64,000 bases of DNA from an uncultured virus (IMG/VR IMGVR_UViG_3300028809_000010) (taxonomy: Duplodnaviria > Heunggongvirae > Uroviricota > Caudoviricetes), in the IMG/VR virus record IMGVR_UViG_3300028809_000010. One strand, given 5' to 3'. Made by a program: the position numbers and the translations under genes. Of this stretch, positions 6,662 through 40,576 are shown piece by piece; the stretch's first letter is position 1, and the number at the start of each line of letters is the position of its first letter. The notes beneath the pieces were generated by a model. The model searched no databases. It was not told where the DNA came from and saw nothing but the letters and a program-made list of their open reading frames with translations.

Positions 6662-7000
6662 ATGGATGATCTGCCCGTCTGGACGCGAACACCCGAGGCG
6701 GACAAGAGGATTCGCGAGTTGTCCCTGCCGCCTCGGCTGCGCATGAAGACCCAGAAGATGCGGGACCTGAGGGATGCCGTCGCCGGGTACAAAGCCCTCG
6801 ACGACTCCGCCCATGCCGGGATGTCCCCAGTCGGCGTCGACGCCCTCGCCTACCTCGAGCTGCTGCGCAAGCGGTCCAACGCTCGAGGTCAGCTGGCCCA
6901 GGTCATCGAAGAACTCGAATCGGATATGCCTTCAGCTCACGCCCAGGAGGCTCGACGCGCCGGGGAGGAGTTGTACCGGCTGCAAGTCAAGAAGAGGTGA
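6662..7000 (+). CDS. Hypothetical protein
   Basis: RBS present; in operon before WhiB. Confidence 0.55.
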   Translation: MDDLPVWTRTPEADKRIRELSLPPRLRMKTQKMRDLRDAVAGYKALDDSAHAGMSPVGVDALAYLELLRKRSNARGQLAQVIEELESDMPSAHAQEARRAGEELYRLQVKKR

Positions 7001-7006
7001 AAGTCA

Positions 7007-7534
7007 TTGAGTATCAACGATTCCTGGGAAGCGGGGGCGAAGTGCAGGGGCTGGGATGTCAACCTGTTCGACCCGGACACCTGGAAGCAGCAAGGCGACA
7101 ACCCCAACCAGGCCGCGCGAGCTCTGTGTGAGGGATGCCCGGTGATGCGACAGTGCGCGGAGCAGGCGATCAAGTCCAACGCCACCGGAGTGATCCGAGC
7201 CGGAGCCTGCCTGCACCAGTCCACCAGTAACCCCCGCAGGCACGACCGCTTGCACTTTCTGATCGAGCACGGACGTCACGCCGGACCCGGAGAACTGGCC
7301 GCCTACCGGCACAGCGCCGAGATGGCCCGCATCCAGCCGGACAGCAAGTTCGCCCCGGGGATGCACCTCGCTGGACCGGGGGTGGGACCGGGAGCGGAGG
7401 AAGAGGTGGTCGAGCAGCACCGCGAGCTGTCCCAGATGGGGTTGACCGGGCCGGAGATCGCAGTGAAGCTCAACGTCCCCCTCCACACCGTCCACTACCT
7501 GAACCGGCGGCTGAAGAAGCGTGAGGCGGCATGA
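7007..7534 (+). CDS. WhiB-family transcription factor with additional C-terminal HTH
   Basis: AKCRG...ARALCEGCPVMRQC...GVIRAG; C-terminal GLTGPEIAVKLNVPLHTV. Confidence 0.8.
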   Translation: MSINDSWEAGAKCRGWDVNLFDPDTWKQQGDNPNQAARALCEGCPVMRQCAEQAIKSNATGVIRAGACLHQSTSNPRRHDRLHFLIEHGRHAGPGELAAYRHSAEMARIQPDSKFAPGMHLAGPGVGPGAEEEVVEQHRELSQMGLTGPEIAVKLNVPLHTVHYLNRRLKKREAA

Positions 7535-9777: not shown

Positions 9778-9782
9778 TAAGG

Positions 9783-9925
9783 CCACCGATCCGATTCGAT
9801 CCGGATGGGTCAGTCGGATCGGTCGCAAAAGGTCCCATTTCCCGACCCGATATCCCCGAGCTGACTGAGCCGACCTACCCCCCCCTTTAGGGGGGTAGTC
9901 GGATCGGTCGGATCGGTCGGGTGGG
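9783..9925. repeat. Iteron-like GATCGG/CCGATC repeats with a central palindrome; candidate replication origin
   Basis: Several ggatcggtc/ccgatcc units and a CTACCCCC...GGGGGTAG palindrome directly after the prim-pol/helicase gene. Confidence 0.55.
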
Positions 9926-10342
9926 AGCCGCCTCGGATGACTGGATGAAAGGAGGCGGATTGAGCCCGGGTAAGCCGAAGCAATCCGGATCGGTCAGGAG
10001 GGTCAGCAATGCCCACAGGACGACCAAGCCGAAGCTCGCGTACTGCCACCACTGCAAGCGTCACGTACTGAGCGCTACCTACGACGCCCTCCCGCGAACC
10101 TTCGACCCGGTACCTCTGACTATGGAAGGTGAGCTGGCCTGCCTTCTGCGCGGAGAAGCAACGTGGTTTATCGCGGGCGGGCATTTATACAAAAGGAATT
10201 CCTGGGCGATCAAAACAAGTCCGCGCGGTCTCGGGGGAATGATCGTGCAACCCCACCACTGCGACCACCCCCAGCCGTCGGGCTCTCACGCGAATTGGCC
10301 GCAGCCGAAAAGCGACGACCCGGGATTCTAGAAAGGCCGAAT

Positions 10343-10543
10343 ATGTTTCAGGTTTCTACGGAAGACGGTCGGGTGTATCTCGATCAGGTTTCCCCCGCCC
10401 GCTCCATGAGTCCGTCCGAAGCGCGAAGTCTCGGCGAAGAGCTGATCGGATGGGCAGACGAGCTCGAGGTCCGCCAGCGCGTCCAGAGGATGGAAGAGCA
10501 GAGACGGATACGCGAGGAGAACAAGCTACGGAAGCGCCGATGA
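10343..10543 (+). CDS. Hypothetical protein
   Basis: GAAAGG RBS then MFQVSTEDG; ATGA overlap with Endo VII. Confidence 0.55.
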   Translation: MFQVSTEDGRVYLDQVSPARSMSPSEARSLGEELIGWADELEVRQRVQRMEEQRRIREENKLRKRR

Positions 10544-10965
10544 AAAGGTGCAAGGACTGCGTAGCGGAAGGGATCACCACACTCCGCGATGCATTCCACC
10601 CTGGCCCGAGGTGCGCTACCCACCATCGAATCTTCACCAAGACCCGCAAAGCCAACAACCACGAACTGATGGTCCAGCGCACCTACAAGCTCCAGCCAGG
10701 CGAATACGCCAAAGCCAAGGAGTTCCAAGAAGGCACGTGCGCTATCTGCCAATTGGCCACAGGTAAAAGCAAGAGGCTGGCAGTAGATCACGACCACGGG
10801 TGCTGCCCGGAAACTCCAACATGCGGTAACTGCAATCGAGGTCTTCTGTGCAGTGAATGCAACCAGCTCCTGGGCCGCGCCAAAGACCGCACCGACTTTT
10901 TCCACAGGGCTATCCGCTACCTGGATGACCCACCGATTCCCCGAATGAGAAGAGCAGAAAAATGA
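10540..10965 (+). CDS. Recombination endonuclease VII (Holliday junction resolvase)
   Basis: QEGTCAIC...LAVDHDH...RGLLCSECNQLLG. Confidence 0.9.
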   Translation: MKRCKDCVAEGITTLRDAFHPGPRCATHHRIFTKTRKANNHELMVQRTYKLQPGEYAKAKEFQEGTCAICQLATGKSKRLAVDHDHGCCPETPTCGNCNRGLLCSECNQLLGRAKDRTDFFHRAIRYLDDPPIPRMRRAEK

Positions 10966-11144
10966 ACCGCATCTCCACAGCCCTCGCCGACATCGCCTAC
11001 GAACTGCTCATCGTCTGGGCGTTCCTCGGCGCCATCCTCTTCACGTCCAGCGCACCGTCGTGGTGGAGCACCACCTTCACGGTCCTCGGCACGGTGTTCG
11101 TCGGCCTGGCCGTCTACCGCTTCTTCGCCGACCGGAAGGCATGA
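10962..11144 (+). CDS. Small membrane protein
   Basis: Two hydrophobic helices. Confidence 0.55.
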   Translation: MNRISTALADIAYELLIVWAFLGAILFTSSAPSWWSTTFTVLGTVFVGLAVYRFFADRKA

Positions 11145-11145
11145 C

Positions 11146-11406
11146 ATGTACGCGATGTGGATTGTTTTCATCATCCTCGGATTCGTAGTCGGGGCCGCCG
11201 CTGTCTTCGGTGCCGTGATCGCCTTCGCCGAGGACGAGTTCGGCCTGTGGCTGCTCGGGGTGGTGGCTGCCGTCGCCGCGTATGGCATGGCAGGTTTCGG
11301 CATTGCCCAGGTCACCTCGATCGAGCGCCAGCAATGCGAGGAAGCCGGTTACGAGTGGATCACCGGGACCTGCTTCGGCTCCAACGTGAATGTGAACCAG
11401 CCATGA
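11146..11406 (+). CDS. Membrane protein
   Basis: Two TM segments and C-terminal C-x3-G-x-W-x4-C. Confidence 0.6.
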   Translation: MYAMWIVFIILGFVVGAAAVFGAVIAFAEDEFGLWLLGVVAAVAAYGMAGFGIAQVTSIERQQCEEAGYEWITGTCFGSNVNVNQP

Positions 11407-11790
11407 GGCGGGCGAGTGTCCTGACCGAACAGGAGCGCCGAGACCACGAATGCAGGCGCCAGTGTCCACGAGGGCGCGGAGCCCGTGGCGACGTCAAGAT
11501 GTGCGACCACGGCCGGATCTGGGAGTGGCGCGCAAACACCGAGCGCTGGCGCCAGCTGAGTTGGCGCAACCCCTTCCAGCGCCGCCGCTACACCATCGCC
11601 CGCAAAGCCCTGCTCACCGAGGAGGAGTCATGAGCTGGATCAGGTGCGTCCCGGACAAGCACCACTGCCTGAAGCCGGTCTTCCCGAGGGGCTACGCCCG
11701 GGGGAGCCAGTGGCAGTGCGATGAGTGCGGGTCTGTCTGGACGCTGAAGCTGAACATCGACGACGGCCTGATCGTGAAGTGGAGTCGGTC

Positions 11791-12129
11791 ATGACGCTAC
11801 TCAGGGGCTGGCACGGCTGGGCGGCGGTGACGCTGGTGGTTGCGACCGTCGACGCCCTCGCCCCGGAAGGCCAGACGATGTCGGAAGCCCTCTACCGCGC
11901 CCGCCAGAAGCATCCATACCTGGTGGTGTGGCTGGTGACAACGACCGCTGTCCACTTGCTGGCCGGAGATCACCCGAGCATGGCCCGCATCGACGTGTTC
12001 AAGCTCTTCGGTGTCGGCCGTAGGAGGCTCCGAACCCTCCGGGGGTCACTCAGGTATGCCGAGGGCGGTTTCGTCAGCCCTAGGTCGTCCCATTGCAGCG
12101 GGAATGAGGTGCTGTGGCCAAGCCAGTGA
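11791..12129 (+). CDS. Actinophage membrane protein
   Basis: W...D..APEGQTMSEA..RAR..HP...HL pattern recalled from mycobacteriophage proteins. Confidence 0.55.
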   Translation: MTLLRGWHGWAAVTLVVATVDALAPEGQTMSEALYRARQKHPYLVVWLVTTTAVHLLAGDHPSMARIDVFKLFGVGRRRLRTLRGSLRYAEGGFVSPRSSHCSGNEVLWPSQ

Positions 12130-12294
12130 TCATGACCCAGTTCCGGCACTGGACGGACGCCTACCCCGAAGCCGTCTTCCGTGCCCACATCACGGGCCGC
12201 CGCTATCGGGTCTGGTACGACCCCGCCAACCGGTGGTGGAACGTCACCGAACTGACCCAGCGCCACCGGCTGCCGTACCCGGAGGAGGGTGGCC

Positions 12295-12588
12295 ATGCGT
12301 AAATCCGCCGAGCTGACCCGCGAAGAGGTGGCCTCGGGCCTGTGGAACGTCAACTGCTGCGACCAGAAGCTGTCCGGCACGATGACCGCCCACTGCACCG
12401 CCTGCCACGCCACGTTCACCCGCCCGGGTGGATTCGACCGTCACCGCCGCAACGGGAAGTGCCTGAACCCGGCGACGCTGCTGGACACCAACAAGCGACC
12501 GGTGTTCCAACGCGCCGACCGGAAGTACCCGTGCTGGCAGATGGCCGGACCCGACGACGACCGACCCGCATGGGAGACCTACGAATGA
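12295..12588 (+). CDS. FDXHR-type Zn-binding protein
   Basis: HCTACHATF...FDRHRRNGKCLNP. Confidence 0.7.
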   Translation: MRKSAELTREEVASGLWNVNCCDQKLSGTMTAHCTACHATFTRPGGFDRHRRNGKCLNPATLLDTNKRPVFQRADRKYPCWQMAGPDDDRPAWETYE

Positions 12589-13163
12589 GCGGCATCTGGT
12601 TCACATCCGATCTCCACCTGGGCCACAAGCTGGTCGCCTCGGAGCGCGGGTTCGACACCACCGAGGAACACGACGCCGCCCTAGCCGCCAACTGGGATGC
12701 GCTGGTCCGCCCGCAGGATCAGGTGTACGTCCTCGGCGATCTGTGCATGAGCCGGGGCAGCGGAGGTCTGACCAGGGCACTGGAGTGGATCTCCGAACGG
12801 CCCGGCATCAAGGACCTGATCTGGGGCAACCACGACTCCGGCCATCCGATGCACCGCGAAGCCCACAAGAACCAGGCCCGGTATCTCGGGGCGTTCCGGT
12901 CGGCCCAGCAGTCGGGCATCCGCAAGATCGGCGAACACCGGGTTCTGCTGAGCCACTTTCCCTATCAAGCCGACCACACCGCAGAGGTTCGCTATCCCCA
13001 GTGGCGTCCGCCGAACTACGGGGAATGGCTCATCCACGGGCACACCCATTCGAGTCGGCAGCGCTACGGCAGCAGGCAGCTCCACGTCGGCCTGGACGCG
13101 CATGGCCTGAAACCCGTGCCGTTGAAGTGGATCGAAGAGCAGATGAGGAAGGACTACCCATGA
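12585..13163 (+). CDS. Calcineurin-like metallophosphoesterase
   Basis: SDLHLGH, LGD, GNHD, HFP and HGHTH motifs. Confidence 0.9.
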   Translation: MSGIWFTSDLHLGHKLVASERGFDTTEEHDAALAANWDALVRPQDQVYVLGDLCMSRGSGGLTRALEWISERPGIKDLIWGNHDSGHPMHREAHKNQARYLGAFRSAQQSGIRKIGEHRVLLSHFPYQADHTAEVRYPQWRPPNYGEWLIHGHTHSSRQRYGSRQLHVGLDAHGLKPVPLKWIEEQMRKDYP

Positions 13164-13544
13164 GCTTGTTTCGTAATCGGTACGGGGGTAGGTCGCGGCT
13201 CGGTCGATGGGTAGACCGTCTGCGCGTGCTCATCCTTCCGCCGAGATGCGTGTGGTGCCGAACCAGGGGTGCCACTATCCACGCCAACGGCGGAACGTGG
13301 TGGCACGGCGACTGCTTCGACGAGAACATCACCCGGCAGTTCGAAGCGATGGGGCTTTACGAATGAGCTGCCAGCACACCTTTTCCGATCTGGACCCGGG
13401 GGAGTGCCTGCGTTGTGGCATCGCCCCTGGTCCCGAGTGGCTGTACGGCACCTGCGGCGGCTGCAAGCGAGAACTGAGCAGCGTGAATCTCTACCACGGC
13501 TGGTGCCCCCACTGTCATCACACATTCCCTCCGGAGGACGACGA

Positions 13545-13892
13545 ATGAAACTCTGGCGCATCAATCCCGCGTACTGGTGGGAGCTCCTGGACAGTCGAAC
13601 CAGAGCGCATGTCCGGTTCCACGCCATTCGCGCCGCACTGAATCCGCGACTGAGTGACCAGGCGGTGGAGGCGATGTACAACGTCTTCTACTTCCAATAC
13701 TCGATCGACCAGGCCAAGCAGGCGGGGCGAAAAGACGCGGCCGACTATGTCGAGGCTGAACTGCGCTACGTGTCGGCCGAGGAAGCCCTGGAAAGCCTTC
13801 GTCGCAGCGCCGACCGGGTGATCGAATACCAAGACGCGGCGTACAAGAACCAGACTGCGTTGTACTTCCCCTCGAGCCGGAGAGCCGGATGA
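13545..13892 (+). CDS. Hypothetical protein
   Basis: GGAGGA RBS; ATGA overlaps. Confidence 0.55.
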   Translation: MKLWRINPAYWWELLDSRTRAHVRFHAIRAALNPRLSDQAVEAMYNVFYFQYSIDQAKQAGRKDAADYVEAELRYVSAEEALESLRRSADRVIEYQDAAYKNQTALYFPSSRRAG

Positions 13893-14185
13893 GCACATTC
13901 CTGAATTCACTGAAGATCATCGACGAATGCGCGGTGTGCCAAGAAGACGTGAGGTTCTGGCGGCACCGGTGGTATCACGTCACACCGAACGCCCTGGGCC
14001 TGGAGCTGCACGGCGAGGACGGCCACAAAGCCTTCGGCGCCAACGATACCGAAGAGGGCGTGACGTTCTGGCGTGAGAAGTACAAGGGCCAGAAGGAGCT
14101 GTTCGAATTCCTCGGCATGACCCCGGGCGAGTTCAGGCGGTTCCAGGAGGCCAACCCGAAAATTACGGAGGGGGTAGGGGAGTGA
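13889..14185 (+). CDS. Hypothetical protein
   Basis: Coupled ORF; ELFEFLGMT motif. Confidence 0.55.
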   Translation: MSTFLNSLKIIDECAVCQEDVRFWRHRWYHVTPNALGLELHGEDGHKAFGANDTEEGVTFWREKYKGQKELFEFLGMTPGEFRRFQEANPKITEGVGE

Positions 14186-14394
14186 AGATCAAGAAGAAAG
14201 AGCTCCGCCGCCTGCTTCGTGAGGTGATCGGCCCGGACCACGAGTTCGAATTCGAGACCAATGTGTATCAGGTCCCCCCCGGCGTGAAGGAGCTGCACGT
14301 GCCGAGACTTATGGGGCTGGAGGCCAACAAACTCAAGGCCGTTCAGCGAGCACGGGCCGAGAAGCTGCTCCGGGAAATGCGGAAGGGGTAGGAG

Positions 14395-14913
14395 ATGTGT
14401 GAAGAGTTCCTGGATCAGCTCGAGACCGTTACCCGCGTCGATGTGATCTGCGACTTCAAGCGTGTGCGTCAGCTGAACGGAGTCAAGTTCGTCGCGATGG
14501 TCTTGCAGGACGACAACCGGACGATGAAGCTGTTCCTGGTCTCCCGCGACGACAACGGCAAGTCCGTCGAGGAGTACCACGCGAATCTTGCCCGATCTTT
14601 CCAACAGCAGGATTTCGCGGGTCCGGTCGATGCAACCCTCCATGTTGAAACCGGCGAGGAACCAGAGGAGAGCTTGGCGAGTCAGCTGGCCGAGGAAGAG
14701 CTCACGCTGAAGGAAAAGCTGGTCGCCGCTCGCAAGGCTGCTGGGATGTCCAAGGCCGACATCACGAAAGCCCTCGGCTGGAAAGAGAAGGAGGTCAGTC
14801 GATTCGAGCGGCTGGACTCCAACCCGACGCTGGCTCAGATCCGCTACTACGCCCATGCTATCGGTGCCCTGGTGACCTTCGGCGTCGAAAATGGTAAGGG
14901 GGTAGGCGGGTGA
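14395..14913 (+). CDS. XRE-family HTH protein with extra N-terminal domain
   Basis: LVAARKAAGMSKADITKALG...VSRFERLDSNPTLAQIRYYAHAIG. Confidence 0.8.
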   Translation: MCEEFLDQLETVTRVDVICDFKRVRQLNGVKFVAMVLQDDNRTMKLFLVSRDDNGKSVEEYHANLARSFQQQDFAGPVDATLHVETGEEPEESLASQLAEEELTLKEKLVAARKAAGMSKADITKALGWKEKEVSRFERLDSNPTLAQIRYYAHAIGALVTFGVENGKGVGG

Positions 14914-15336
14914 TCCAAAGTCAGATGCGGTATCGGGTCAGCTGCGACAGCTGCCATTCCATTTATCATCACGCCGGACAACTCAGCTGGTTGAGTGATC
15001 TGGACACCGCCCTAGCCCTGGCCCGTGAGGGTGGATGGCGAGCAAGCCCCGCCAGAGCTACTTGCCCGACCTGCCTGGGCCTGAAAATGGGAAGGGGGTA
15101 GACGGGGTGAGGGTCTACAAGGAGCCGTACGCCGAGGTGCGCAAAGGCCGCAACAACCGGGGTGAGGGCTGGTTCATCTACGTCAACGTCAGCCCGACCC
15201 GGTTTGTCACCTTCGGCCCGTATGCCCGGCAAGACAAGGCATTCGAGATCGCCTTCACGGAAGCATCCTTTGCTCGCGGTCGTGGGCATCTTCTGTCGGG
15301 GTTTCGTGAACGGGGCGGTGATTGGAGCTGGATCAT

Positions 15337-16086
15337 ATGAACTGTCCGAAGTGTGGCGCGGACTCCGTCGAGGGTCACCTCTGCTGGTCGTGCGTGAAGC
15401 TCCTGCGGAAAATCCTCGAGGGGTTGGAGGAGGGCGTGGATGAGCTGGAGACGCAGCTGACGAAGCAGTCCGTGGACGTGAAGCAGCCCGGCAAGACCGA
15501 CGAGGTTCCGCTGCTGTTCGACGAGGCCGCGTCGGATGTGCTCGAGCTGCTGCGGGGAACTCTCGCCGAGTGGTCCGGGGAAAATGCAGGAGGGGTAGGC
15601 AAGCTCGGTGAGTGCCGCCGCCACCTGGCCTGGCTGATCACCCACGTGGTGGACCTGCGGTCCGAGCCGGATATCGACAGGATGTTCCGGAAGTTGATCT
15701 ACGTTCGGAGCCGGATCTACTCGGTGATCGACCGGCGTCAAGAGAAGGTGGCTCTGGGGCGCTGCGCTTGCGGTCTGGATGTGTGGAGCTTCCCGGATCG
15801 TGAGGTCTGGGTGTGCAAGTGCGGGGAGCGGTTCAACGTTCAGACCACCCGCGAGCGCTTCCGCAACATCGGCCGGGAGCAGAAGGTCACCGCCAAGCAG
15901 GCCGAGGCGCTGGGGGAGGTGTACGGCCGGGTCATCCGTGCCCGCACCGTCCACCAATGGCATCGCCGTCGTCACCTGTCCGATCACGGCAAGAATGAGG
16001 AGGGGCTCTGGGTGTTCCGGTTCGGTGATCTCCTAGAGCTCGCCGGTGAGGGCGTGGTGCAGCAGCTCGAGGTGAACGATACCTAG
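15337..16086 (+). CDS. Zn-finger/HTH DNA-binding protein (candidate late transcription regulator)
   Basis: CPKC..CWSC, LGRCAC, CKC and C-terminal RTVHQWHRRRHL...FRFGDL HTH; last gene of the rightward operon. Confidence 0.65.
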   Translation: MNCPKCGADSVEGHLCWSCVKLLRKILEGLEEGVDELETQLTKQSVDVKQPGKTDEVPLLFDEAASDVLELLRGTLAEWSGENAGGVGKLGECRRHLAWLITHVVDLRSEPDIDRMFRKLIYVRSRIYSVIDRRQEKVALGRCACGLDVWSFPDREVWVCKCGERFNVQTTRERFRNIGREQKVTAKQAEALGEVYGRVIRARTVHQWHRRRHLSDHGKNEEGLWVFRFGDLLELAGEGVVQQLEVNDT

Positions 16087-16389
16087 GTCGGCGGGGCCGG
16101 GCTCGATTTGATCGGGTACGTCAGCCCGGCCCGTCACCACTACGTCACCCCAGAGGATCGGAAGTCCGCACGGTCCGCGTAGCTGCTGCATCGCCCACAT
16201 CGCCGAGACGTTGAAGACGGGCCGGGACACCAGAGCCGCGCCGACATCGACCCAGAACACCAGTGGGCCCAGCCATTCCGCGTACACCGAATCGGCCCGG
16301 ATGGTGTTGGCGATCAGTCCCAGCGTGTTGGTCCGGCTGAGAGACACGAGACTAACTACACCTGTTGTGGTGATGAGCAATCCATGCAT
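16083..16389 (-). CDS. DUF3846-like protein (ORF track extends the 3' end to 16033)
   Basis: FWVD...N..A...ILWGDVVVTG resembles 54883..55278. Confidence 0.5.
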
Positions 16390-16628
16390 GGGGCAACCGC
16401 TTCGGTGAATGGGTGGGTGGTTAGGGGAACGAACGGACTCCGGGTCTAAATCGGTGGTTTGAGGTGGTTTGTTACCGGGTATGGTTGCCCGGTCAACAGC
16501 AGCGTAGACCGCTCTACCGACAGTGAACGCCGGTGTTCTGGACGTCTATCCAACTGTGACCATCGGCCCTAGGTAAGGCTTCACTTCGGGAAAATGCGAA
16601 CGGGTTCCGTTCCACCCGGAAGCAAAAG

Positions 16629-16904
16629 TTACCGAGACCGCACCAGCCAGGCCAGACGCTGCAAGTGCCGTACGGCCGCCTCCTTGCCCTGCACCCACGC
16701 GGCATGGGCACTCGGGGCCGGGTGCAGGGACACGAACCATTGCGAGGGTATGCCGGACAGCTCGCCCGTGACCAAACAGATACCCGTATCGGTGGAGTAA
16801 GCAGCCATCCGGCCGGGAGAGAAGCGGACCAGTATCTGTCGGCCCACCTCGCCCCCCGGCCCGATGCAGCGTAATCGCAGCTCTCCGCTCGCCGGGATGT
16901 TCAT
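16629..16904 (-). CDS. Hypothetical protein
   Basis: ATG overlaps the stop of the upstream gene (ATGA). Confidence 0.5.
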   Translation of the reverse strand: MNIPASGELRLRCIGPGGEVGRQILVRFSPGRMAAYSTDTGICLVTGELSGIPSQWFVSLHPAPSAHAAWVQGKEAAVRHLQRLAWLVRSR

Positions 16905-17080
16905 AGCCGCTGTGTGTTGGTCAGCTCCCCCGGCCGGAGGTGACTCAGCCCCGCATTCACCAGAGCCTCTATCGCCTCGGCGGGTGTCAGCCCGTGCGCA
17001 TCGGCGTAGGTCGAGACTTCCACCACCCGCGACCACCCGGACAGCTGCGCATAGGTGATGACGGCCGGACTGTCTTCCAT
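16901..17080 (-). CDS. Small possible ribbon-helix-helix protein
   Basis: VSTYADAHGLTPAEAIEALVNAGL; AAAGGA RBS. Confidence 0.45.
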   Translation of the reverse strand: MEDSPAVITYAQLSGWSRVVEVSTYADAHGLTPAEAIEALVNAGLSHLRPGELTNTQRL

Positions 17081-17499
17081 TACTGAATCCTTTCCAGCTC
17101 GGCGATTGTCGGCCCGGCGTACCCGTACTCCCACACAGACGATCCGTCGTTGAACAGGGTCGAGGCGGGCACACGGGCAACGTATACCGGCCAATCCAGC
17201 ACGGAGTCCGATTTGTGCATCCCGTGCTCGGCGGCATAGCTGGGCGCGGTCGTGACCCAATCACCGGAATTGATCACGGGCTCCACGTCCGGCGGCATCG
17301 CGCGACAGACAAGGATCATTCGGTCGGGGTTGTCTCTCGCATCTACGGTCTGAAACCACGCGGAGGCATACTTGCGCATCTCCTCGTCAGTCAGCGTGCG
17401 TCGTGGATGGTCGTAGATGTCCTGCCCCCACATCGGCCGCAGATCGGTTATGCACGTGCCAGACGTCGGCGCGGTGTGCTGGAGGCGGTAGTCGTTCAT
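17080..17499 (-). CDS. Possible ADP-ribosyltransferase-like domain protein
   Basis: VCRAMP...INSGDWVT...YAAEHG...V.A..L..DG.S.WEYGY pattern recalled from phage polyvalent-protein domains. Confidence 0.5.
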   Translation of the reverse strand: MNDYRLQHTAPTSGTCITDLRPMWGQDIYDHPRRTLTDEEMRKYASAWFQTVDARDNPDRMILVCRAMPPDVEPVINSGDWVTTAPSYAAEHGMHKSDSVLDWPVYVARVPASTLFNDGSSVWEYGYAGPTIAELERIQ

Positions 17500-17530
17500 T
17501 GCTCGACTTCTTTCGGGGGTTGGGGTATGG

Positions 17531-17803
17531 CTAGTCGATCGCCTCGATATTGATAACCACGTCTTCATTGCGGTAGAACTCGACAACTACCCGCTTGCCG
17601 TCGAACTTTCTCGAGCCTGTCCGCACAGCGTTAGCTCCCTTGCCAATCGTTCCACCGCCGCCCAATCCGCCCGACAGCTCAAGCGCGAGCATGTCATCGA
17701 GCCGAAAGTCTCCGTCTGTCGTTCGGGCGACTACTACACCGCCATCGCGGCCCGTTCCTCGCTGAAGGTATTTGATGGTGGTTTCAATCTTCTTGTTCGC
17801 CAT
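17531..17803 (-). CDS. Hypothetical early protein
   Basis: Start preceded by the start-associated repeat. Confidence 0.6.
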   Translation of the reverse strand: MANKKIETTIKYLQRGTGRDGGVVVARTTDGDFRLDDMLALELSGGLGGGGTIGKGANAVRTGSRKFDGKRVVVEFYRNEDVVINIEAID

Positions 17804-20898: not shown

Positions 20899-21216
20899 TC
20901 ATCGCGCACCACCGAGAATGCGGAAAGCGTCGGCCAGCCCCTGGGGATCGTTCCTTCGCAGCAAGTTTGCCGCCATGTGGTGGCCGGACAGTCCCAGGTG
21001 GACGTCTACCGGGTTGCTCCCCACACGGAACAGCAGAGCCAGCGCTACAGGGTCGTTCCTGCGAAGCATCTCGCCGACGTTCGCGCGGATGGTGGATTGG
21101 GCGTAGCCCTTCAACGCGCGTTCGGAGTAGGCCCAGTCGAGGTTTGTGCGGGAATCCTCGGCCGTCAGATTCCATTCGTGGTCGGTGGTGTCGCTGGCCT
21201 TATCGAGAGTGATCAT
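20899..21216 (-). CDS. Hypothetical protein (probably first gene of the leftward operon)
   Basis: AGGAGGAAAG RBS. Confidence 0.6.
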   Translation of the reverse strand: MITLDKASDTTDHEWNLTAEDSRTNLDWAYSERALKGYAQSTIRANVGEMLRRNDPVALALLFRVGSNPVDVHLGLSGHHMAANLLRRNDPQGLADAFRILGGAR

Positions 21217-21504
21217 GGTTCTTTCCTCCTGGGTGTTGGTGTACGCAAATACGTGCTTTGAGCGACGCGGAGTGGAATCGAACCACTCTTTGATTGCCTG
21301 GTGCCCTAAGGCCGCGTCGAAAGTGTGAGTTGGATGGTTGGGTGGCTAGTCCAGCTTGCGACTCGCGTATGTGGCACATAGGGCCGATTAAGCCCACTTA
21401 GAGTTTCTGCGATCGCTGCCTATTGAGTTTGCCGATGTACGTGCGGAGTAAGCGTTAGGGAAGGGTGGAAATCGTCCGGCCCGCTAACCCGCCGTGAACT
21501 TCAT

Positions 21505-21602
21505 GTACACATAGTGCTCTTTAGGCGGATACGGTGTCAACACCCTTGCAAGTCACGGTACGGTAACGATCGCCTGTATGCCTAAGTCGCTGGTTTTGTC
21601 AA
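21505..21602 (-). promoter_or_regulatory. Two tandem SigA-like promoters facing the leftward small-gene array
   Basis: Two TTGACA hexamers on the minus strand (tgtcaa ending at 21540 and 21602) with weak -10 candidates about 18 bp away. Confidence 0.5.
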
Positions 21603-21779
21603 TACTTTTGCAGAAATTTCTAGTCTTTAACGTAGGAAAGTATGGGTCGTGACCTGCGGATATTCGCCAGAATCGACGAACGCAACCTAGTTGGTGTGGC
21701 TGTACCGGAGAAGCCCTTTCGTGGCTTAGGAGGCCATATAGGGCCCTTTGTGTACGTCACTGATTGGGCTGTATCCGCT

Positions 21780-22095
21780 GTATGTGGCTACCTGTGTGCA
21801 CCATGCATACACGCACCCCCGTATACGCATACCTATGTGTACATACTACCTATGTGTATGCATAGTATGTACATACACACACAGTATGCATACACATACA
21901 TTGCATAGTTCAACTATCTAGAACACACACTATCTACATGAACACAATCTATTAGATCACTATCACACACCATGATCATCTGCATATGAACCATTGTATA
22001 TGCATAGTATGTATGCGCATACAGCCAAGCGATGTGCAGAGTACACACGCCGCATCGCACCCCGATCACTCGCGCAGACATGCACACACACCACC
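21780..22095. repeat. AT-richer alternating purine/pyrimidine tract (ATGCATA, CACACA, TATGTG units)
   Basis: Directly visible low-complexity non-coding sequence that contrasts with the GC-rich coding DNA. Confidence 0.8.
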
Positions 22096-22536
22096 CGATG
22101 TCAAGAGTGAGGTTGCGCCGGTGCTCGTGCGAGCTTGCCAGCCTCTGCACTCCGGCGAGATCTCGATGTGTGCCTGCCACGGATTGGCCATCGACGCTCG
22201 CACGCGCTCGCCGAAGCCACCTCGAGCCTTGCTGATCTCACAGCCGAGAAATGTCTGGCAATCGGACGCCGAGTGTCACACCAAGATCGTCCCCAAATAG
22301 CCTACCCCCCTAGGGTTTACGGGTATGGGGGGGTATACCCGGTATGGGTAATCGTCAAGAAAGGTTGACGCCGCCTCGCGCCTTTTCCCTCTCTATTCAA
22401 AAAAGTGCTCTGACCTGCGGTTTTGCGAGGAATTTCGCGGATGTCGACTCGTTTTTCGCCGAGTGCGCCTTCGAAATTGATGCCCGGCCGCGCATACCCC
22501 CCCGGAAAATTCACGCGGCCGGACATACCCCCCCAA

Positions 22537-23997
22537 TTATCGCTTGGCGACCGAGTCGAGAATGGAGGTGGTGAGGGCCTGGCGGTCGGGGGCAATGGAC
22601 ACCACGTCGATCGCGACTTTGCCGGGAGTGCGCTTTCCTGCCCCGAGCCTCTGCATGGTGATCTTCACGCTGAGCCGGAGGAGCGCTCGTTTGTCGACGA
22701 GTTCCATGTCACCCCAGATCAGGAGCGCGTCCCGAGCCAGGACATCCAACAGCGGCGAGATGAGTGCGGCCTTGCGCTGGGTTTCCAGGTCGGCGATCTG
22801 GGGGAGGAGTTCGGCCTCGGCGTCGACGAGAGAGGCCACCGACAGTTTCCCCTGCTTGGCGTACGTCCTGTATTCCTCGAGCCGCTTCTTCAGGGCGTTG
22901 AGCTCGGTCTCGATAAGAACCAGCCCGGCGTCCGGCGGCGGCACATCTTCGTCGATATCGAACAGAACCGTATCGGCTTTCCAACCAGCGATGATCTCCC
23001 GGACGCGGTCGGTGACGTATTTGTCGGAGTCGTCGGCCCGGCGCGTGAGGCATCCGTTGGTGCGGCAGACGTAGCGCCCCCCTCGGCCACGGTTCTGCCA
23101 GCAGACAGGCTCGCCGCACACTCCGCAGACCATGATGTTCGTCAGTAGGTGCTCGGGATGCTTGCCCCGGGGCTCCGCCAGTTTGTTTCCCTCGATCCTC
23201 GCGACGAGCTGCTGGTGCTGGTCCTCGGTGATGATGGCAGGCCAGGTCCCCTTAGACACGACCTCTCCGTAAAGAGTGCGGAGCCCGGCGATCTTCGGTC
23301 GGATCAGGACTTGCCGGATCGTGGTGATCGTCCAGGACCCTTCCTTCTGCGCGCGGGGGACTCCTCTCGCCGTCCACTCCCGCTGCACCGCCCGCAACCG
23401 CCCACCGGCAAGGATGTGATCGACGGCCCAGCGGATCGCGTCGGCGGCAATCGGGTCCTCCTGCCACGTCCAGGTGCCGTCGGGCTCGTAGACCTTCTGG
23501 TAGCCGAATCCGAGCTTGGCGTGGGGGTTGCCAGAGAGGGCGCGCTTGCGGATGTCTCGCTTGATCCGGTCGGAGAGCTGGTCGCTTTCGTGTTCGTTGA
23601 CGACGGCCTTGATGCCGGTGGACAGCCGCGCGTTCGTGTCGGTGAGGTCCAGGAGCTCGCCACCGGAGCACAGCAGCACCCCCCGCTCGACACAGAGGTC
23701 CCGGAGTTCGACCCACTCCTTCAGGCGGCGGGAGGTGCGGGACTGCTCCCAGATGACCAGGACGTCACCGGGCTGGAGTACGGTCAGCAGCCGCTTGTAG
23801 CCGGGGCGGTCCTTCGCGGCGAATCGGCTGGCGCTGGTGTCGTCGGTGATCTCCGGTCCGGGGGTCCAGCCGTTGGTGGCGATGACGTCACGCCCGACCT
23901 CGAGCTGCTGGGGGACCGAGCACTTCTTGCCGCCCTTGCTGTCGCTGACTCGGGCGTAGAGGACAGCGCGGCGGGTGCGGGCAGTGGTGGGCTTCAT
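22537..23997 (-). CDS. int: Large serine recombinase (integrase)
   Basis: YARVS catalytic Ser, SRTSR, FGY recombinase domain, Zn ribbon CGVC...C...C, coiled coil. Confidence 0.95.
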   Translation of the reverse strand: MKPTTARTRRAVLYARVSDSKGGKKCSVPQQLEVGRDVIATNGWTPGPEITDDTSASRFAAKDRPGYKRLLTVLQPGDVLVIWEQSRTSRRLKEWVELRDLCVERGVLLCSGGELLDLTDTNARLSTGIKAVVNEHESDQLSDRIKRDIRKRALSGNPHAKLGFGYQKVYEPDGTWTWQEDPIAADAIRWAVDHILAGGRLRAVQREWTARGVPRAQKEGSWTITTIRQVLIRPKIAGLRTLYGEVVSKGTWPAIITEDQHQQLVARIEGNKLAEPRGKHPEHLLTNIMVCGVCGEPVCWQNRGRGGRYVCRTNGCLTRRADDSDKYVTDRVREIIAGWKADTVLFDIDEDVPPPDAGLVLIETELNALKKRLEEYRTYAKQGKLSVASLVDAEAELLPQIADLETQRKAALISPLLDVLARDALLIWGDMELVDKRALLRLSVKITMQRLGAGKRTPGKVAIDVVSIAPDRQALTTSILDSVAKR

Positions 23998-24011
23998 GGG
24001 TGGCCTCCGTG

Positions 24012-24061
24012 GGGTACGTATTAAAAATGCTAGTGCAGATGAAGGTAATTAATACGTACCC
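24012..24061. other. Candidate attP
   Basis: Perfect 13-bp inverted arms GGGTACGTATTAA / TTAATACGTACCC around a 24-bp spacer (50 bp total, central CA), next to the integrase start. Confidence 0.75.
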
Positions 24062-24222
24062 TTGCCCACTCACGTCAACGATTCTTCCACCCGGCCTCGA
24101 TCACGGGGGCGCCCGGGGGGATCGGGAGGGCTGTGACCTGGGGAAACGTCTGCGGCGTCTAGCCGGGTCGACAAGGGGAGGGGTACTGTACATCTACCCG
24201 CTGAGCCCCGAGGAGCCCCGAG

Positions 24223-25008
24223 TTGAGCCGACTGCTGTACGGATACCGCCGGACGGAGACTGGTGTCGAACCGGTCCCGGAGGAGGCGCGTGTCGTGCAG
24301 GAGATCTTCGAGGAGTTCCTGGCTGGGACGAAGGTGCAGCGGATCGCTCAGTCCTTGGCGAAGCGCGATCTGCGGGGCCGCCGGGGAGGACTGTTCACCA
24401 GCCCGCAGGTGCACCGCATCCTCCGCCAAGCGACGTACGCCGGTGCCGACGAGGGGTGCCCCGCTCTGGTCTCGCAGGCCGTCTTCGATGCCGCCCAGGA
24501 GAAGCTGGACAGTCCGGAGCGACAGAGCTTCGAGAGGGGGCAGCCTCCGGCGCATCTGCTGACGGGGATTGCCCGGTGCGGGGTGTGCGGCGCGGGGATG
24601 AAACGCTCGAGCCGGGGCAGCAGACAGCCCGACACCTACGCCTGCCCGAGCCTGGATCGCAGCACCCCCCACCCCGCGCGAGAGATGGCCTTCGTCGACG
24701 AGCTGGTGACGGAGACGCTGTTCTACATGATCAATACGGATCACTTCGCCGAGGTGCTGGGGGCGGCCGTGGAGAAGCGGGCCCGACAGAAAGCGCTGCT
24801 GGGCCGGGCCCCCGATTCGCCGCTGATCGACCTGGCCGAAGCGACAGACCCGCGCCAGGCATGGGAGGACCGTCCGCTGGAGTGGAAGCGGAGCCTCCTC
24901 AAGGACACCTTCCGCATCACGATCCTGACGGTGCCGAAGGAGAAGAAAGGTCGACACAACGGGCTCGATCCGCAGTTCGTGGACATCAGGTGGGCGGAAG
25001 GTGTGTAG
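24223..25008 (+). CDS. Serine recombinase DNA-binding domains only (recombinase plus Zn ribbon; no catalytic domain)
   Basis: YGY...EEARVVQEIF...YAG...ALVS...HLLTGIARCGVCG...YAC; GAGGAG RBS; no YxRxS N-terminal domain. Confidence 0.85.
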   Translation: MSRLLYGYRRTETGVEPVPEEARVVQEIFEEFLAGTKVQRIAQSLAKRDLRGRRGGLFTSPQVHRILRQATYAGADEGCPALVSQAVFDAAQEKLDSPERQSFERGQPPAHLLTGIARCGVCGAGMKRSSRGSRQPDTYACPSLDRSTPHPAREMAFVDELVTETLFYMINTDHFAEVLGAAVEKRARQKALLGRAPDSPLIDLAEATDPRQAWEDRPLEWKRSLLKDTFRITILTVPKEKKGRHNGLDPQFVDIRWAEGV

Positions 25009-25010
25009 CG

Positions 25011-25364
25011 ATGTACAAGACCGAGAAGGCGATGTGGGCGTGGCTGAGCAACTACTGGCGCGCCCTGGCGGAGATGTTTTCGACGTACCGGGAGCGGCGG
25101 GCCGGTAGGTTCCTGAAGGCGGCCCCCAAGCGCTTGGAGGGGGAGGGCGTCATCGGCTACGGAGCTGCATGGCCGAAGCGGGTGGCGCAGCGTCAGGGCG
25201 TTTCTATCGGAATGGAGCTTGGCATGTTGCTGCGCGTTTTGATCGGTCTGGTCGCCGCCGTCGGCATTGCGGTCGCCATCGTCGGCCTGTCTTCGTACCA
25301 CTGGGCGTCGTACCGATTCCGGCCGAAGCAGCGCGACGAGGACTGGCCGACAACCGTAGTGTGA
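25011..25364 (+). CDS. Membrane protein
   Basis: Long C-terminal hydrophobic helix. Confidence 0.55.
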   Translation: MYKTEKAMWAWLSNYWRALAEMFSTYRERRAGRFLKAAPKRLEGEGVIGYGAAWPKRVAQRQGVSIGMELGMLLRVLIGLVAAVGIAVAIVGLSSYHWASYRFRPKQRDEDWPTTVV

Positions 25365-25454
25365 CGATTTGCACTTTCAGGTTGAAGCCTGATCTCGAGT
25401 AGGCTCGCGCCGGAGGCACTTCTACGCCAATTAATGGACGCCTCCGGAATCTAA

Positions 25455-25492
25455 CTCCCCGCCGTCATCCGTGACTGGCGGGGATTTCTTTT
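25455..25492 (+). terminator. Intrinsic terminator
   Basis: tccccgcc...ggcgggga followed by tttctttt. Confidence 0.6.
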
Positions 25493-25663
25493 GGTCGTGT
25501 CGGCCCGCCTGCACTGGCGATCGGCTGACACAAGCAGCCCCGGTTGGGTAATTCCTCGCCCCGCGCTTTCATGGGTGGTTTCGCGGTCGAGCTTGAGGTA
25601 CCAACCGGGGCTTTGTCGTGCCCGGATGCCATGAGTCCGGGATGAGTAAAAGCAGGTCCCGCA

Positions 25664-26629
25664 ATGCGAAAGATCTCAGTAGTTCTACTGTGCGCCGCCG
25701 CAATTCCCGTCACCGCCCTCACCGGCACCGCCCACGCCGAGGAAGCTCCCGATTGCCGGGACGTGGTCATCGGGGTCGGCGGCAATGGCCAGCGCTACGC
25801 CGAAAGCAAGGGCGCACGCACGATCATCACCGACATTCTGGCGGACAAGGACGCCGAGGGTTACCGGACCGAGAATGTCGATTACACGAGCTCTGTCTGG
25901 CCGACCGGTCCGTACACCAAGGACTACTCGGTCGAAGAGGGCCGGGCCGAACTGGATCGGGAGATCGCCGAATACCGGGCCGAGTGCCCGAACGGCGAGG
26001 TAACCGTCATCGGCCATTCCCTCGGCGCGGAAGTGGTGGAGACACCCGACGCCGAGCACACCATTCTCCTGGGCGACCCGAGGGACCAGCAAGGTATATA
26101 CAACGCGCTCCCCGGCGTATTCCCAGGTGCCTCCAATCCCGGCTCGCGAGATGCCGAAGCGGAAGGGGCGGTGAGTGTCTGCCGCGAGTTCGACGGCATT
26201 TGCGACACCGCCGCCCCCTGGAGTGACCCGGCCAAGTTCGTGCAGGGCACCGCAGGCTATCTGATGGGCTGGCACGGCTACTCCCCGGAGGAAGTCGACC
26301 AGTATCAGGGTGCAGCGCCGGGTGAATACCTGATCGACGCACCCAAGCCGATCGAGTGGCTGCCGGAGTCGACGCCGACGGGAATCCCGGCAGCGCCGGA
26401 GCTGAGCCTGCCGGAAATCGCCCCGCCGGTCCCACTGCCGTCTGCTCAGGATTTCTACCCGCTCGAGCAGCTGGGCCAGCCGTACACGCCGACGCCGCTG
26501 GAGGAATACATCCCCGAGTGGGTCGAGCCGGTGCTGCCGCAGGAAGTCCTGAACTACGTGCCTCCGGCGCCCGAGCAGGTTTTCGTTCTGCCGCCCGCGC
26601 CGGAGTTCCACATCCCGGGGCTGTTCTGA
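25664..26629 (+). CDS. Secreted cutinase/PE-PPE-like serine esterase with Pro-rich tail
   Basis: Signal peptide (AHA), GHSLG nucleophile, LLGDP, C..FDGICD and WHGY. Confidence 0.85.
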   Translation: MRKISVVLLCAAAIPVTALTGTAHAEEAPDCRDVVIGVGGNGQRYAESKGARTIITDILADKDAEGYRTENVDYTSSVWPTGPYTKDYSVEEGRAELDREIAEYRAECPNGEVTVIGHSLGAEVVETPDAEHTILLGDPRDQQGIYNALPGVFPGASNPGSRDAEAEGAVSVCREFDGICDTAAPWSDPAKFVQGTAGYLMGWHGYSPEEVDQYQGAAPGEYLIDAPKPIEWLPESTPTGIPAAPELSLPEIAPPVPLPSAQDFYPLEQLGQPYTPTPLEEYIPEWVEPVLPQEVLNYVPPAPEQVFVLPPAPEFHIPGLF

Positions 26630-26994
26630 TGTTCGACTTGAGCAGTCCGGTCTCTCACATGTGCTTTGATGCCGTCGACGGACTCCGGGTGATAGTCGTG
26701 CTGCCCAGTTTCAGCTCGGAGGAAGCGACGCTCGGATCACTCAAGGAAATGATCGAGCAGGTTCGGGAGCTTTCCCCTAATGCGATCGAGTCGGTGAGCT
26801 GCTCGTACCCGAGGCGGTACGTGAAGTTCACGTCGGGTGGCGAGATCATATTCCTGAGCGAGCAGAGCAGAGGGAGTGGACGCGGGCTCTCTGGGGATCG
26901 CCTGTACATCCGCCACGGCGTATCGGAAGAGACTCGCCGGTCCATGCTCCCCGTGGTCTGCGCGCGCCCAGGTGGCATGATCACCTACTTCTAG
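26629..26994 (+). CDS. Mini-protein resembling a degenerate terminase ATPase core
   Basis: Colinear by eye with TerL from GERLII to ARPNPQMIY (IEQ, VS.S, SG..I.F, G.GRG..D, P.V.ARP); no Walker A and no Walker B DE. Confidence 0.65.
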   Translation: MFDLSSPVSHMCFDAVDGLRVIVVLPSFSSEEATLGSLKEMIEQVRELSPNAIESVSCSYPRRYVKFTSGGEIIFLSEQSRGSGRGLSGDRLYIRHGVSEETRRSMLPVVCARPGGMITYF

Positions 26995-27138
26995 ATTTGC
27001 CGGAACATCGAGGGGCCAGACAGTCCTAGGAACTCGAGAACCGGAAGTCGGGAGCGGTACTGCCAGGCGGACAGCGGGGGTTGGCCCCGTGTAGTCACCT
27101 GAATGCAGCATTGCCCCGGCGGTACAACTGAATAGGTC

Positions 27139-27434: not shown

Positions 27435-27507
27435 TGGTCTGTAGCTCAGAGGACAGAGCACCGGTCTACGAAGCCGGGTGTCGCAGGTTCGACTCCTGCC
27501 AGATCAG
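27435..27507 (+). tRNA. tRNA-Arg(ACG)
   Basis: Canonical cloverleaf; CCGGT-CTACGAA-GCCGG. Confidence 0.9.
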
Positions 27508-27595
27508 CAAACGAACCCTCGGAATGTGCGCACGACCTCCGGGGTAGTAGGGATCAGCCCACGCCTCTCGAAGAAGCGAACCTCGGGCTGGATTC

Positions 27596-27681
27596 GGAAG
27601 GTGCCGCTGAATGGTCGGCAACCGGTGTCGAATACCGGGGTGGGGTAAAACCCAGGGGTTCGATCCCTCCACCTTCCTCCA
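27596..27681 (+). tRNA. tRNA-Ser(CGA)
   Basis: GGAAGGT/ACCTTCC acceptor, long variable arm, loop GTCGAAT, encoded CCA. Confidence 0.85.
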
Positions 27682-27682
27682 C

Positions 27683-27747
27683 GCCCCAACGGGTTGCTAG
27701 CGGCCACTTGATCAACGGCCGTGCTCGGGTTCGAATCCCGAGGGGGC
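27683..27747 (+). ncRNA. Truncated tRNA-like element
   Basis: GCCCC/GGGGC stem, T arm TCGGG-TTCGAAT-CCCGA, 11-nt anticodon-like loop, no D arm. Confidence 0.45.
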
Positions 27748-27750
27748 TCT

Positions 27751-27834
27751 GGAAGACAAATCGGCCGGGGGCCGAGCCGCGTTGCTAGCGCGTACGGGCA
27801 CTTGATGTCTGGGGTTCGAGACCTCTGTCTTCCG
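27751..27834 (+). tRNA. tRNA-Ser(GCT)
   Basis: GGAAGAC/GTCTTCC-G acceptor, loop TTGCTAG, long variable arm. Confidence 0.8.
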
Positions 27835-27837
27835 CAA

Positions 27838-27917
27838 CGGGGTGACCTCTTGGTAGAGGGAGCGGCCTGTAAAGCCGTGGCCGTAGTGCATTGGTGGTTC
27901 GACTCCATCCGCCCTGA
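27838..27917 (+). tRNA. tRNA-Tyr(GTA)
   Basis: GCGGC-CTGTAAA-GCCGT, long variable arm, discriminator A. Confidence 0.8.
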
Positions 27918-27919
27918 CT

Positions 27920-27995
27920 GTGGCCGAAGCTGAAGCGGATAAGCGCCCGGTTGTGGTCCGGGTAGTAGTGGGTTCGAGTCCCACCGGCCACCCCA
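27920..27995 (+). tRNA. tRNA-His(GTG)
   Basis: CCCGG-TTGTGGT-CCGGG, discriminator C, encoded CCA. Confidence 0.85.
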
Positions 27996-40503: not shown

Positions 40504-40576
40504 GCGGGCGTAGCTCAACTGGAAGAGCAGCGGTCTCCAAAGCCGCCGGTTGCAGGTTCGACTCCTGTCGCCCGCG
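40504..40576 (+). tRNA. tRNA-Trp(CCA)
   Basis: Canonical cloverleaf; GCGGT-CTCCAAA-GCCGC. Confidence 0.92.

Follow-up and report, generated by a model that had tools for sequence, protein, structure and literature searches.

An uncultured virus of the Caudoviricetes is represented in IMG/VR by the record IMGVR_UViG_3300028809_000010, from which one stretch of 64,000 nucleotides (nt), hereafter called the window, was analyzed. The window is an actinophage-like genome with ~63% G+C, seven tRNA genes and a structural module from ~28 kb onward. Ahead of this module, the gene of a complete large serine integrase (int) and an open reading frame (ORF) of 261 amino acids (aa), which is the subject of this study, face away from each other across a 50-bp inverted repeat. 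The ORF encodes only the part of a serine integrase that is associated with DNA binding, and is directly followed by a gene for a 117-aa membrane protein. The divergent arrangement around the repeat had been proposed in a first-pass annotation of the sequence and is confirmed by the coordinates and by the repeat itself. The same genes are present in G001, a viral record of 45 kb that is nearly identical, and no megablast match to window 21000-27000 was found among isolated phages.

It is established for serine integrases that an N-terminal domain dimerizes and cuts, that recombinase and zinc-ribbon domains each read part of an attachment (att) half-site, and that a coiled coil controls synapsis and direction (see the abstracts of PMC3783163 and PMC5499577). 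In the ORF product, Pfam places the domain Recombinase (PF07508) at residues 19-96 with 51.1 bits and Zn_ribbon_recom (PF13408) at residues 112-143 with 26.7 bits, the respective cut-offs being 21.1 and 25.3 bits. The catalytic domain of serine integrases (Resolvase, PF00239) is not matched at E<=0.1, and the PHROG integrase profile aligns to the ORF only from position 245 of 651. The zinc ribbon has a complete set of four ligands, C119, C122, C141 and H150 (CCCH). The three cysteines are invariant (63/63 alignment rows), and the column of H150 holds His in 35/63 and Cys in 9/63 rows. Since all 63 aligned relatives have a Cys or His between the third Cys and R153, with His the commoner, a CCCH ribbon is ordinary in this subfamily. 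The coiled-coil region has 51 residues between V162 and W214, whereas 52 full-length relatives have a median of 96 there (range 59-107). The protein is therefore laid out as a recombinase domain, a CCCH zinc ribbon, a coiled-coil stub (about residues 166-210) and conserved C-terminal strands.

Upstream of the ORF, the sequence GAGGAG at 24210-24215 stands 7 nt ahead of its TTG codon, and an in-frame TGA (24202-24204) lies seven codons upstream. Because the ORF is only 161 nt away from the repeat and in-frame stops occur in this interval, no relic of a catalytic domain can be present upstream. The first-pass annotation had described an ORF with its own ribosome-binding site that keeps the recombinase and zinc-ribbon regions, lacks the catalytic domain and has a much shorter coiled coil, and it was right in each of these respects. 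It had also noted that the fourth Cys seems to be missing, which is correct by letter but not as the loss of a ligand, since His150 is the commoner residue at that column. The features of the locus are listed in Table 1.

Table 1. Features of the window that are discussed in the text
Feature	Positions	Strand	Details and basis
Calcineurin-like phosphoesterase, alternative candidate for a recombination directionality factor	12342..13163	+	phrog_547, E 9.6e-52; Metallophos_2, 25.5 bits (cut-off 27)
Non-coding block shared with the Nocardia prophage	22370..22450		Sequence comparison
int, full-length large serine integrase, 486 aa	22537..23997	-	ATG start; Pfam and PHROG
Ribosome-binding site of int, GGAGG	24004..24008	-	7 nt ahead of the int ATG, abuts the repeat
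Inverted repeat, 50 bp; candidate attP of int and/or operator	24012..24061		Repeat search and analogy with the Nocardia attP
Leader of the 261-aa ORF, 161 nt, with in-frame stops	24062..24222	+	Sequence reading
Gene for the 261-aa integrase-derived protein (the ORF)	24223..25008	+	TTG start; Pfam, PHROG, alignment, AlphaFold2 model
117-aa protein with C-terminal membrane segment	25011..25364	+	Start 2 nt past the ORF stop

Multiple observations support the view that the ORF is a real and intact gene with a recombinase and zinc-ribbon module that is confidently predicted to fold. The G+C fractions at its three codon positions (0.69/0.48/0.85) are like those of int, the terminase, the portal and other genes, while the overlapping long frames differ. 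An AlphaFold2 model built with 63 relatives has a mean predicted local distance difference test score (pLDDT) of 91.8, with no segment below 50, and at the position of the coiled coil only a short helical hairpin is predicted (helices 155-170 and 173-193). The model (residues 1-261) aligns to integrase-DNA complexes (integrase residues ~155-590) with Z scores of 12-15, up to 15.4, and to the recombinase domain of the phiC31-family structure 4bqq with Z 11.9 and a root-mean-square deviation of 2.5 over 99 residues. A Foldseek search with the model returned 26 chains (E 7e-9 to 1e-5), and a sequence search of the PDB with the ORF gave no match at E<=0.01. Every invariant or nearly invariant column of the 63-sequence alignment is retained, namely the three cysteines, G7, G35, G74, L112, G115, Y139 and R223. 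None of the marks of a pseudogene, such as a frameshift, an internal stop, lost conserved residues or a lost coding signature, was found in the ORF. Its sequence is identical in all seven contigs on record (7/7), and one second-position difference, A213V, occurs in a single low-depth Logan contig from four soil-metagenome runs.

Relatives of the ORF were collected by a sequence search of 1.84 billion cluster representatives, which gave 3,452 matches at E<=0.001, of which 18 short matches were inspected. The best match is P0009, a full-length integrase of 519 aa (37% identity, E 3e-30), followed by P0010 (629 aa) and then by the short P0011 (255 aa) and P0012 (273 aa). Of these, four relatives have neither the catalytic domain nor the greater part of the coiled coil. 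In P0011, P0012 and P0156, the coiled-coil spans are 29, 32 and 35 residues, respectively; the fourth, P0154, is a 216-aa chromosomal protein of the alphaproteobacterium Kordiimonas pumila, for which the assessment was visual, together with a pairwise alignment that does not extend beyond the zinc ribbon. Several other short relatives (about 283-318 aa) lack the catalytic domain only. The four short proteins compared are all basic (pI 8.7-11.6). Loss of the coiled coil was observed in 4/11 rows without the catalytic domain and in 0/52 full-length rows, and this confinement is as expected if control of synapsis became useless.

The tree of this family was calculated from an alignment of 68 rows and 225 columns, from which the coiled coil had been cut and the seven repetitive or fragmentary sequences P0010, P0019, P0024, P0025, P0038, P0052 and P0068 had been left out. 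The ORF, P0009, P0028, P0048, P0011 and P0012 form a clade with a Shimodaira-Hasegawa-like approximate likelihood ratio test (SH-aLRT) support of 94, in which P0011 and P0012 are sisters (90). This clade thus contains three cut-down forms (ORF, P0011 and P0012) together with three full-length integrases. A constraint that unites the three cut-down forms was not rejected by the approximately unbiased test (p-AU 0.84), and its likelihood was 42.7 units above that of a short free search; because the constrained tree had the better likelihood, the free search was incomplete. Such a reduction seems to have occurred on more than one occasion, as P0156 falls in another starred clade and P0154 belongs to another phylum, each of the two being a single gene call. 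The neighboring int is only 26% identical to the ORF over 123 residues and falls in a different clade, which rules out the ORF as a copy of int.

Cut-down genes of this type are rare. Among the 80 best loci in species-representative genomes, 78 are open for at least 159 codons upstream, one is cut down (L005, which is P0011) and one is cut by a contig end. In viral contigs, none of 52 other loci is of the ORF type; two are cut by contig ends, and one (L114) has a closed short frame. The latter, at 2420-5821 of an IMG/VR prophage record, has an intact serine integrase of 512 aa and, on the opposite strand at a distance of 320 nt, a second one, which is a full-length gene frameshifted into three frames; this divergent layout is like that of the window, but the second copy is decaying. 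Among 401 Mycobacteriales genomes (a tally that takes in G150, flagged as unpublished, with an ordinary 522-aa frame), relatives at E<=1e-15 occur in 117, and the whole profile falls within a 256-aa frame only in the Nocardia genome that carries P0011. None of the 80 best loci in metagenome contigs is of the ORF type; 11 are N-terminally short, nine of these are cut by contig ends, and of the remaining two, L187 (306 aa) keeps the coiled coil and L218 has 88 residues ahead. The full-length clade member P0028 was not found in 267 Nocardia genomes, and no close relative of it turned up in viral contigs or among isolated phages (best match 34%). The P0167/P0028 cluster includes WP_305781509.1, on a 66,662-bp contig of Nocardia nova, and P0009 is on a contig of 57,185 bp.

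Separately, a recurring type of integrase-like gene, ~290-335 aa in length, begins at the recombinase domain (L157, L158, L159, P0005, the P0136 cluster and L187). Those that were inspected (P0005, P0136 and L187) keep a full-length coiled coil. L157, L158 and L159, from three unrelated Mycobacteriales genomes, each have a frame of 335 aa, and nothing resolvase-like was seen in the flanks retrieved with it. Five contigs carry an identical P0136; the longest has ~61.9 kb, and three have ~61.5 kb.

The relative P0011 is annotated in RefSeq as a 'recombinase family protein' on a 710-kb contig of Nocardia sp. NPDC057440. It belongs to a prophage of ~66 kb (G002:C2, about 469,229-535,178; loci L005 and L085-L091), with a G+C content of 0.55-0.60 compared to 0.66-0.69 in the host. 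This prophage is collinear with the window at 30-70% protein identity in about 70 tblastn rows: window 25664-63720 corresponds to contig 532,749 to 498,261 and window 1653-17586 to 493,539 to 473,675, and the ORF matches 470,319 to 469,639. Because P0011, syntenic in a diverged prophage, shows the same two losses as the ORF, the cut-down form is not a recent truncation. The outcome that the first-pass annotation had set against its own reading, a recent truncation with relatives of full length, is therefore not what was observed. Given the synteny and the constraint test, the ORF, P0011 and P0012 are most simply explained by one old truncation event. Insertion of the int cassette as the cause of the truncation is ruled out, since the Nocardia orthologue is cut down without a cassette upstream.

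The two phages also share a non-coding block (Table 1). In the Nocardia prophage, the block precedes the start of P0011 by ~60 nt, while int and the repeat intervene between the block and the ORF in the window. A cassette at this place in the window only points to a rearrangement at the spot, and such a rearrangement would also fit the ORF being an inert relic, i.e., what is left, without function and not yet erased, of an older integrase after the loss of its 5' part. The mosaic nature of phage integration modules, the full-length relatives in the same clade, the occurrence of broken second integrases beside intact ones (as in L114) and the very small size of the family would all suit a relic. 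A relic would not be expected to have the same two losses in a syntenic orthologue of a phage with 30-70% protein identity, or to keep an undisturbed frame, the conserved positions and zinc ligands, the high pLDDT and the codon-position composition of a live gene. In addition, the N-terminal boundary of the ORF is exactly at the start of the recombinase domain, its start codon is preceded by a ribosome-binding site, and the next gene is tightly coupled to it. The ORF is thus considered unlikely to be an inert relic.

The attachment site of the Nocardia prophage could be reconstructed. A host mannosyltransferase gene (YkcB/PMT type) is split by the prophage, with PMT_2 on one side and YkcB_C on the other; the host frame is restored across both junctions, which have a 10-nt identity in common. 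By eye, the phage-side junction sequences form an imperfect inverted repeat, in which outer 7-nt and inner 6-nt blocks are symmetric about a central dinucleotide. The reconstructed phage attachment site (attP) ends 4 nt ahead of the ATG of the 503-aa serine integrase of the prophage. The circle reads conserved block, P0011, 117-aa membrane-protein gene, attP, integrase, cutinase-like gene and HNH, with everything running in one direction, and the order in the window is block, int (on the opposite strand), repeat, ORF, 117-aa membrane-protein gene and cutinase-like gene. The cut-down gene and the integrase are thus arranged in tandem in Nocardia and divergently in the window. In the integrated Nocardia prophage, they stand at opposite ends, in line with what the first-pass annotation had predicted for integration at such a site.

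By size and place, the repeat in the window fits an attP, by analogy only. Its two arms (24012-24024 and 24049-24061) are 13 nt each and 100% complementary, the 24-nt center is A+T-rich, and it is one of 11 inverted repeats in the whole window with arms of at least 12 nt and a distance of at most 60 nt. The attP reading is supported by the Nocardia relative, in which a proven attP holds the equivalent place directly before the integrase start. The adjacent int product is recognized by Resolvase (83.8 bits), Recombinase (41.4 bits) and, under its cut-off, the zinc ribbon (19.0 bits), and matches the integrase family phrog_95 with E 4.7e-77. No attB, attL or attR was found for the window phage; in this search, the best int homologue among the 401 Mycobacteriales genomes was only 38% identical, and searches of viral contigs for exact copies of either half of the repeat returned the phage's own record only. 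Among the Logan contigs of the four soil-metagenome runs, one spans the repeat unchanged and others break near it, and no attL or attR junction was seen. A scan of 23800-25500 for sigma-70-like promoters gave no site.

The first-pass annotation had linked the ORF to the resident integrase, as a recombination directionality factor (RDF) or as a guard on attP, attL and attR that blocks re-integration or tunes excision. The position of the gene speaks for this: the ORF is divergent from int at a distance of 161 nt from the candidate attP, in the Nocardia circle no other gene stands between attP and the orthologue with its 117-aa partner, which both come to lie at the opposite prophage end from the integrase, and the cut-down gene is within ~1.2 kb of attP in both phages. 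The sequences point the other way. P0011 is only ~23% identical to its own integrase and, as with the ORF and int, the two fall in different clades, and with a DNA-binding module diverged to this degree, reading of the resident att sites is not expected. In addition, the integrases of the two phages are only 23% identical to each other, belong to unrelated lineages and are found at different places. This indicates that the cut-down gene and its small partner have been kept at one place while the integration module was swapped or moved, which is the opposite of the co-inheritance and co-variation with a cognate integrase that are expected of an RDF. A role tied to the resident integrase is thus not supported, as the orthologue coexists, in a tandem layout, with an unrelated integrase.

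What has been described of RDFs bears on the same question. Passages of PMC11795197 state that the RDFs of serine integrases are drawn from unrelated protein families, which makes an unusual RDF conceivable, and that gp47, the RDF of Bxb1, is a calcineurin-like phosphoesterase. According to passages of PMC1470463, known RDFs of serine integrases bind the integrase and not DNA, gp47 acts on the integrase without DNA binding, and calcineurin-like phosphoesterases are also common in phages without serine integrases. The ORF shares with Bxb1 gp47, phiC31 gp3 and SPbeta SprB that it is a phage accessory gene near an integration module with a serine integrase. Unlike the ORF, these RDFs are not paralogues of integrases, and the part of the integrase that makes coiled-coil contacts is missing from the ORF. 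A gp47-family phosphoesterase is carried separately by both phages, with 62% identity between the window and the Nocardia prophage. The remark in the first-pass annotation that no small RDF was recognized nearby has to be modified, since a gp47-type gene is present elsewhere in the window. Because such enzymes are also common in phages without serine integrases, the phosphoesterase is a candidate only, as an RDF or a replication protein. Nocardia phage NTR1, which has the best match to the phosphoesterase, has no homologue of the ORF. Overall, a role of the ORF protein as an RDF or att-site guard for int appears quite improbable.

The 117-aa membrane protein is also part of the conserved arrangement. 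In Nocardia, a gene of the same length follows P0011 with a 4-nt overlap, and both proteins have a soluble N-terminal half and a hydrophobic C-terminal half. No sequence similarity between the two could be detected, and a search of the Atlas with the 117-aa protein gave no usable lead. The coupling of the cut-down gene to a membrane-protein gene in both phages could suggest a two-gene prophage exclusion or defence cassette, in which the ORF module would sense or occupy the DNA of rival phages and the 117-aa protein would be its partner or effector. Actinophage prophages often carry genes expressed in the lysogen next to att and int, and the Nocardia pair is at the very end of the prophage, reading outward. 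The dissimilarity of the two 117-aa proteins does not fit a shared cassette, and no family of PADLOC-DB 2.0 (5,027 models) was matched at E<=0.01 by the ORF, P0011 or either of the 117-aa proteins. A defence cassette is therefore regarded as doubtful.

The reading that is preferred here, with a probability of about one half, is that the ORF is a domesticated integrase derivative that would act as a non-recombining, sequence-specific DNA binder and would serve as a regulator of its own neighborhood or as a site shield. The ORF has the architecture, fold and conserved residues of an integrase DNA-binding half and is retained at the same place in a diverged relative with a different integrase; from this we infer that its product binds DNA, as well as its target and the regulatory outcome. 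The protein, with its two DNA-binding domains, without the catalytic and dimerizing N-terminal domain and with a stub of the synapsis-mediating coiled coil, would bind a specific half-site-like sequence of ~20-25 bp, as integrase subunits do on att sites, and would do so without cutting, strand exchange or synapsis. Since only the two reading domains remain, it would act by occupancy, through repression or shielding of the DNA to which it is bound. The ORF probably reads sites of its own because it is distant from the resident integrase and its orthologue lives with a different one. The likeliest target would be the divergent intergenic region between int and the ORF, with the repeat, or the conserved non-coding block.

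Several known systems can be compared with the ORF. The closest relatives in structure are the C-terminal halves of serine integrases (the Listeria A118-type attP half-site crystal 4KIS and the cryo-electron microscopy structures of Bxb1, phiC31 and other integrases with DNA), which have the same fold and Pfam domains as the ORF throughout. Unlike these integrases, the ORF has no resolvase domain, no alpha-E dimer helix and only a coiled-coil stub, and it is a separate gene beside a different, complete integrase. The c repressor of phage Mu, which is homologous to the N-terminus of MuA, is the closest functional analogy, as a regulator that has the DNA-binding domain of a recombinase and occupies recombinase-type sites. 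In passages of PMC3145075, the MuA-binding enhancer of Mu overlaps the operator O1-O3 that is bound by the c repressor. Mu c differs from the ORF in belonging to another recombinase superfamily with another fold, and for the ORF, the target and repression are a proposal only. The proteins Inh of Tn5 and KP of the P element are N-terminally truncated, catalytically dead recombinase forms that are kept as regulators. These are products of the same gene as the active enzyme and act on it, while the ORF is a separate gene and diverged from int.

Several points weigh against the ORF being such a domesticated DNA binder. Its nearest relative in sequence, P0009, is full-length, and the tree does not separate an affinity of the ORF to P0009 from an affinity to P0011. 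The identity between the ORF and P0011 (31-37%) is at the low end among the orthologous pairs of the two phages. The cut-down family is tiny, with three clade members, one of which (P0012) comes from a contig of 1,284 bp. Concerning possible targets, the repeat arm has no further copies in the window beyond chance, and the motif shared by the window and the Nocardia block is not enriched. The openness of the ORF alone is weak evidence, because long open frames are frequent in the G+C-rich DNA of this window. The identity of the ORF in all seven contigs leaves no test for selection within the lineage, and none of the nine runs listed as containing the sequence is an RNA run.

A wider proposal is that integrase derivatives without catalytic domain and coiled coil form a recurrent class of site-specific DNA readers, which would have evolved independently and been kept beside the attachment site with a small membrane partner. 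Such proteins might occupy the att-like sites of an ancestral or rival integrase type as a means of exclusion or competition, and might block integration or mark incoming DNA of related phages rather than regulate their own integrase. This generalization is speculative, and the chance that it is correct is considered low.

The surroundings of the locus have several other features. Between the leftward genes and the end of int, window 21250-22530 is a non-coding stretch of 1.3 kb with low G+C (0.52 in 21001-22000), which is dense in CA/TG-rich direct and inverted repeats, such as the 20-nt arms 21851-21870 and 21879-21898. A similar CA-rich tract with the conserved block is present at the equivalent place of the Nocardia prophage, and the stretch is possibly an origin, a partition site or a regulatory region. 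An Rfam scan of 21000-25500 gave sub-threshold chance matches only, in the CA-rich tract. The conserved block is bracketed by a G-run motif of 16-17 nt (22327-22342, 22488-22503 and 22519-22535), with two copies inverted and the last one stopping just short of the int stop codon (22537-22539). Since G001 and a Logan contig both start at these repeats, the repeats also break assemblies.

On the other side of the ORF, window 25664-26629 encodes the cutinase-like product, which has 321 aa, an N-terminus resembling a signal peptide and a match to Cutinase/PE-PPE (LysB-like esterase); a shorter counterpart of it comes after the integrase in the Nocardia prophage. A tRNA cluster (27435-27995; Arg, Ser, Ser, Tyr and His) is found directly ahead of the HNH and structural module, and further tRNA genes are tRNA-Trp and tRNA-Pro at 40504-40577 and 59106-59188. 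On the minus strand, 17083-17586 encodes a 168-aa protein that matches only the C-terminal domain of ParB (phrog_2579, E 9e-29) and is kept in the Nocardia prophage with 39% identity. The extreme start of the window (1-71) has a 24-nt inverted repeat, 96% complementary, with 23 nt between the arms.

The fold and family of the ORF product, those of serine integrases, are known. What appears to be new is a conserved stand-alone half without the catalytic domain and coiled coil, encoded beside an attP that is reconstructed in Nocardia and a candidate in the window; no description of a stand-alone integrase DNA-binding half without catalytic domain was found in the open-access full-text literature. 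Serine integrases are major tools in genome engineering, and their DNA-binding halves are being reprogrammed. If the preferred reading is true, a natural, stably folded, stand-alone DNA-binding half would provide a site-specific DNA binder in ready-made form, as well as a new handle on how phages regulate or protect their attachment sites. It would further add an example from the serine recombinases to the few cases in which the DNA-binding part of a recombinase has been turned into a regulator.

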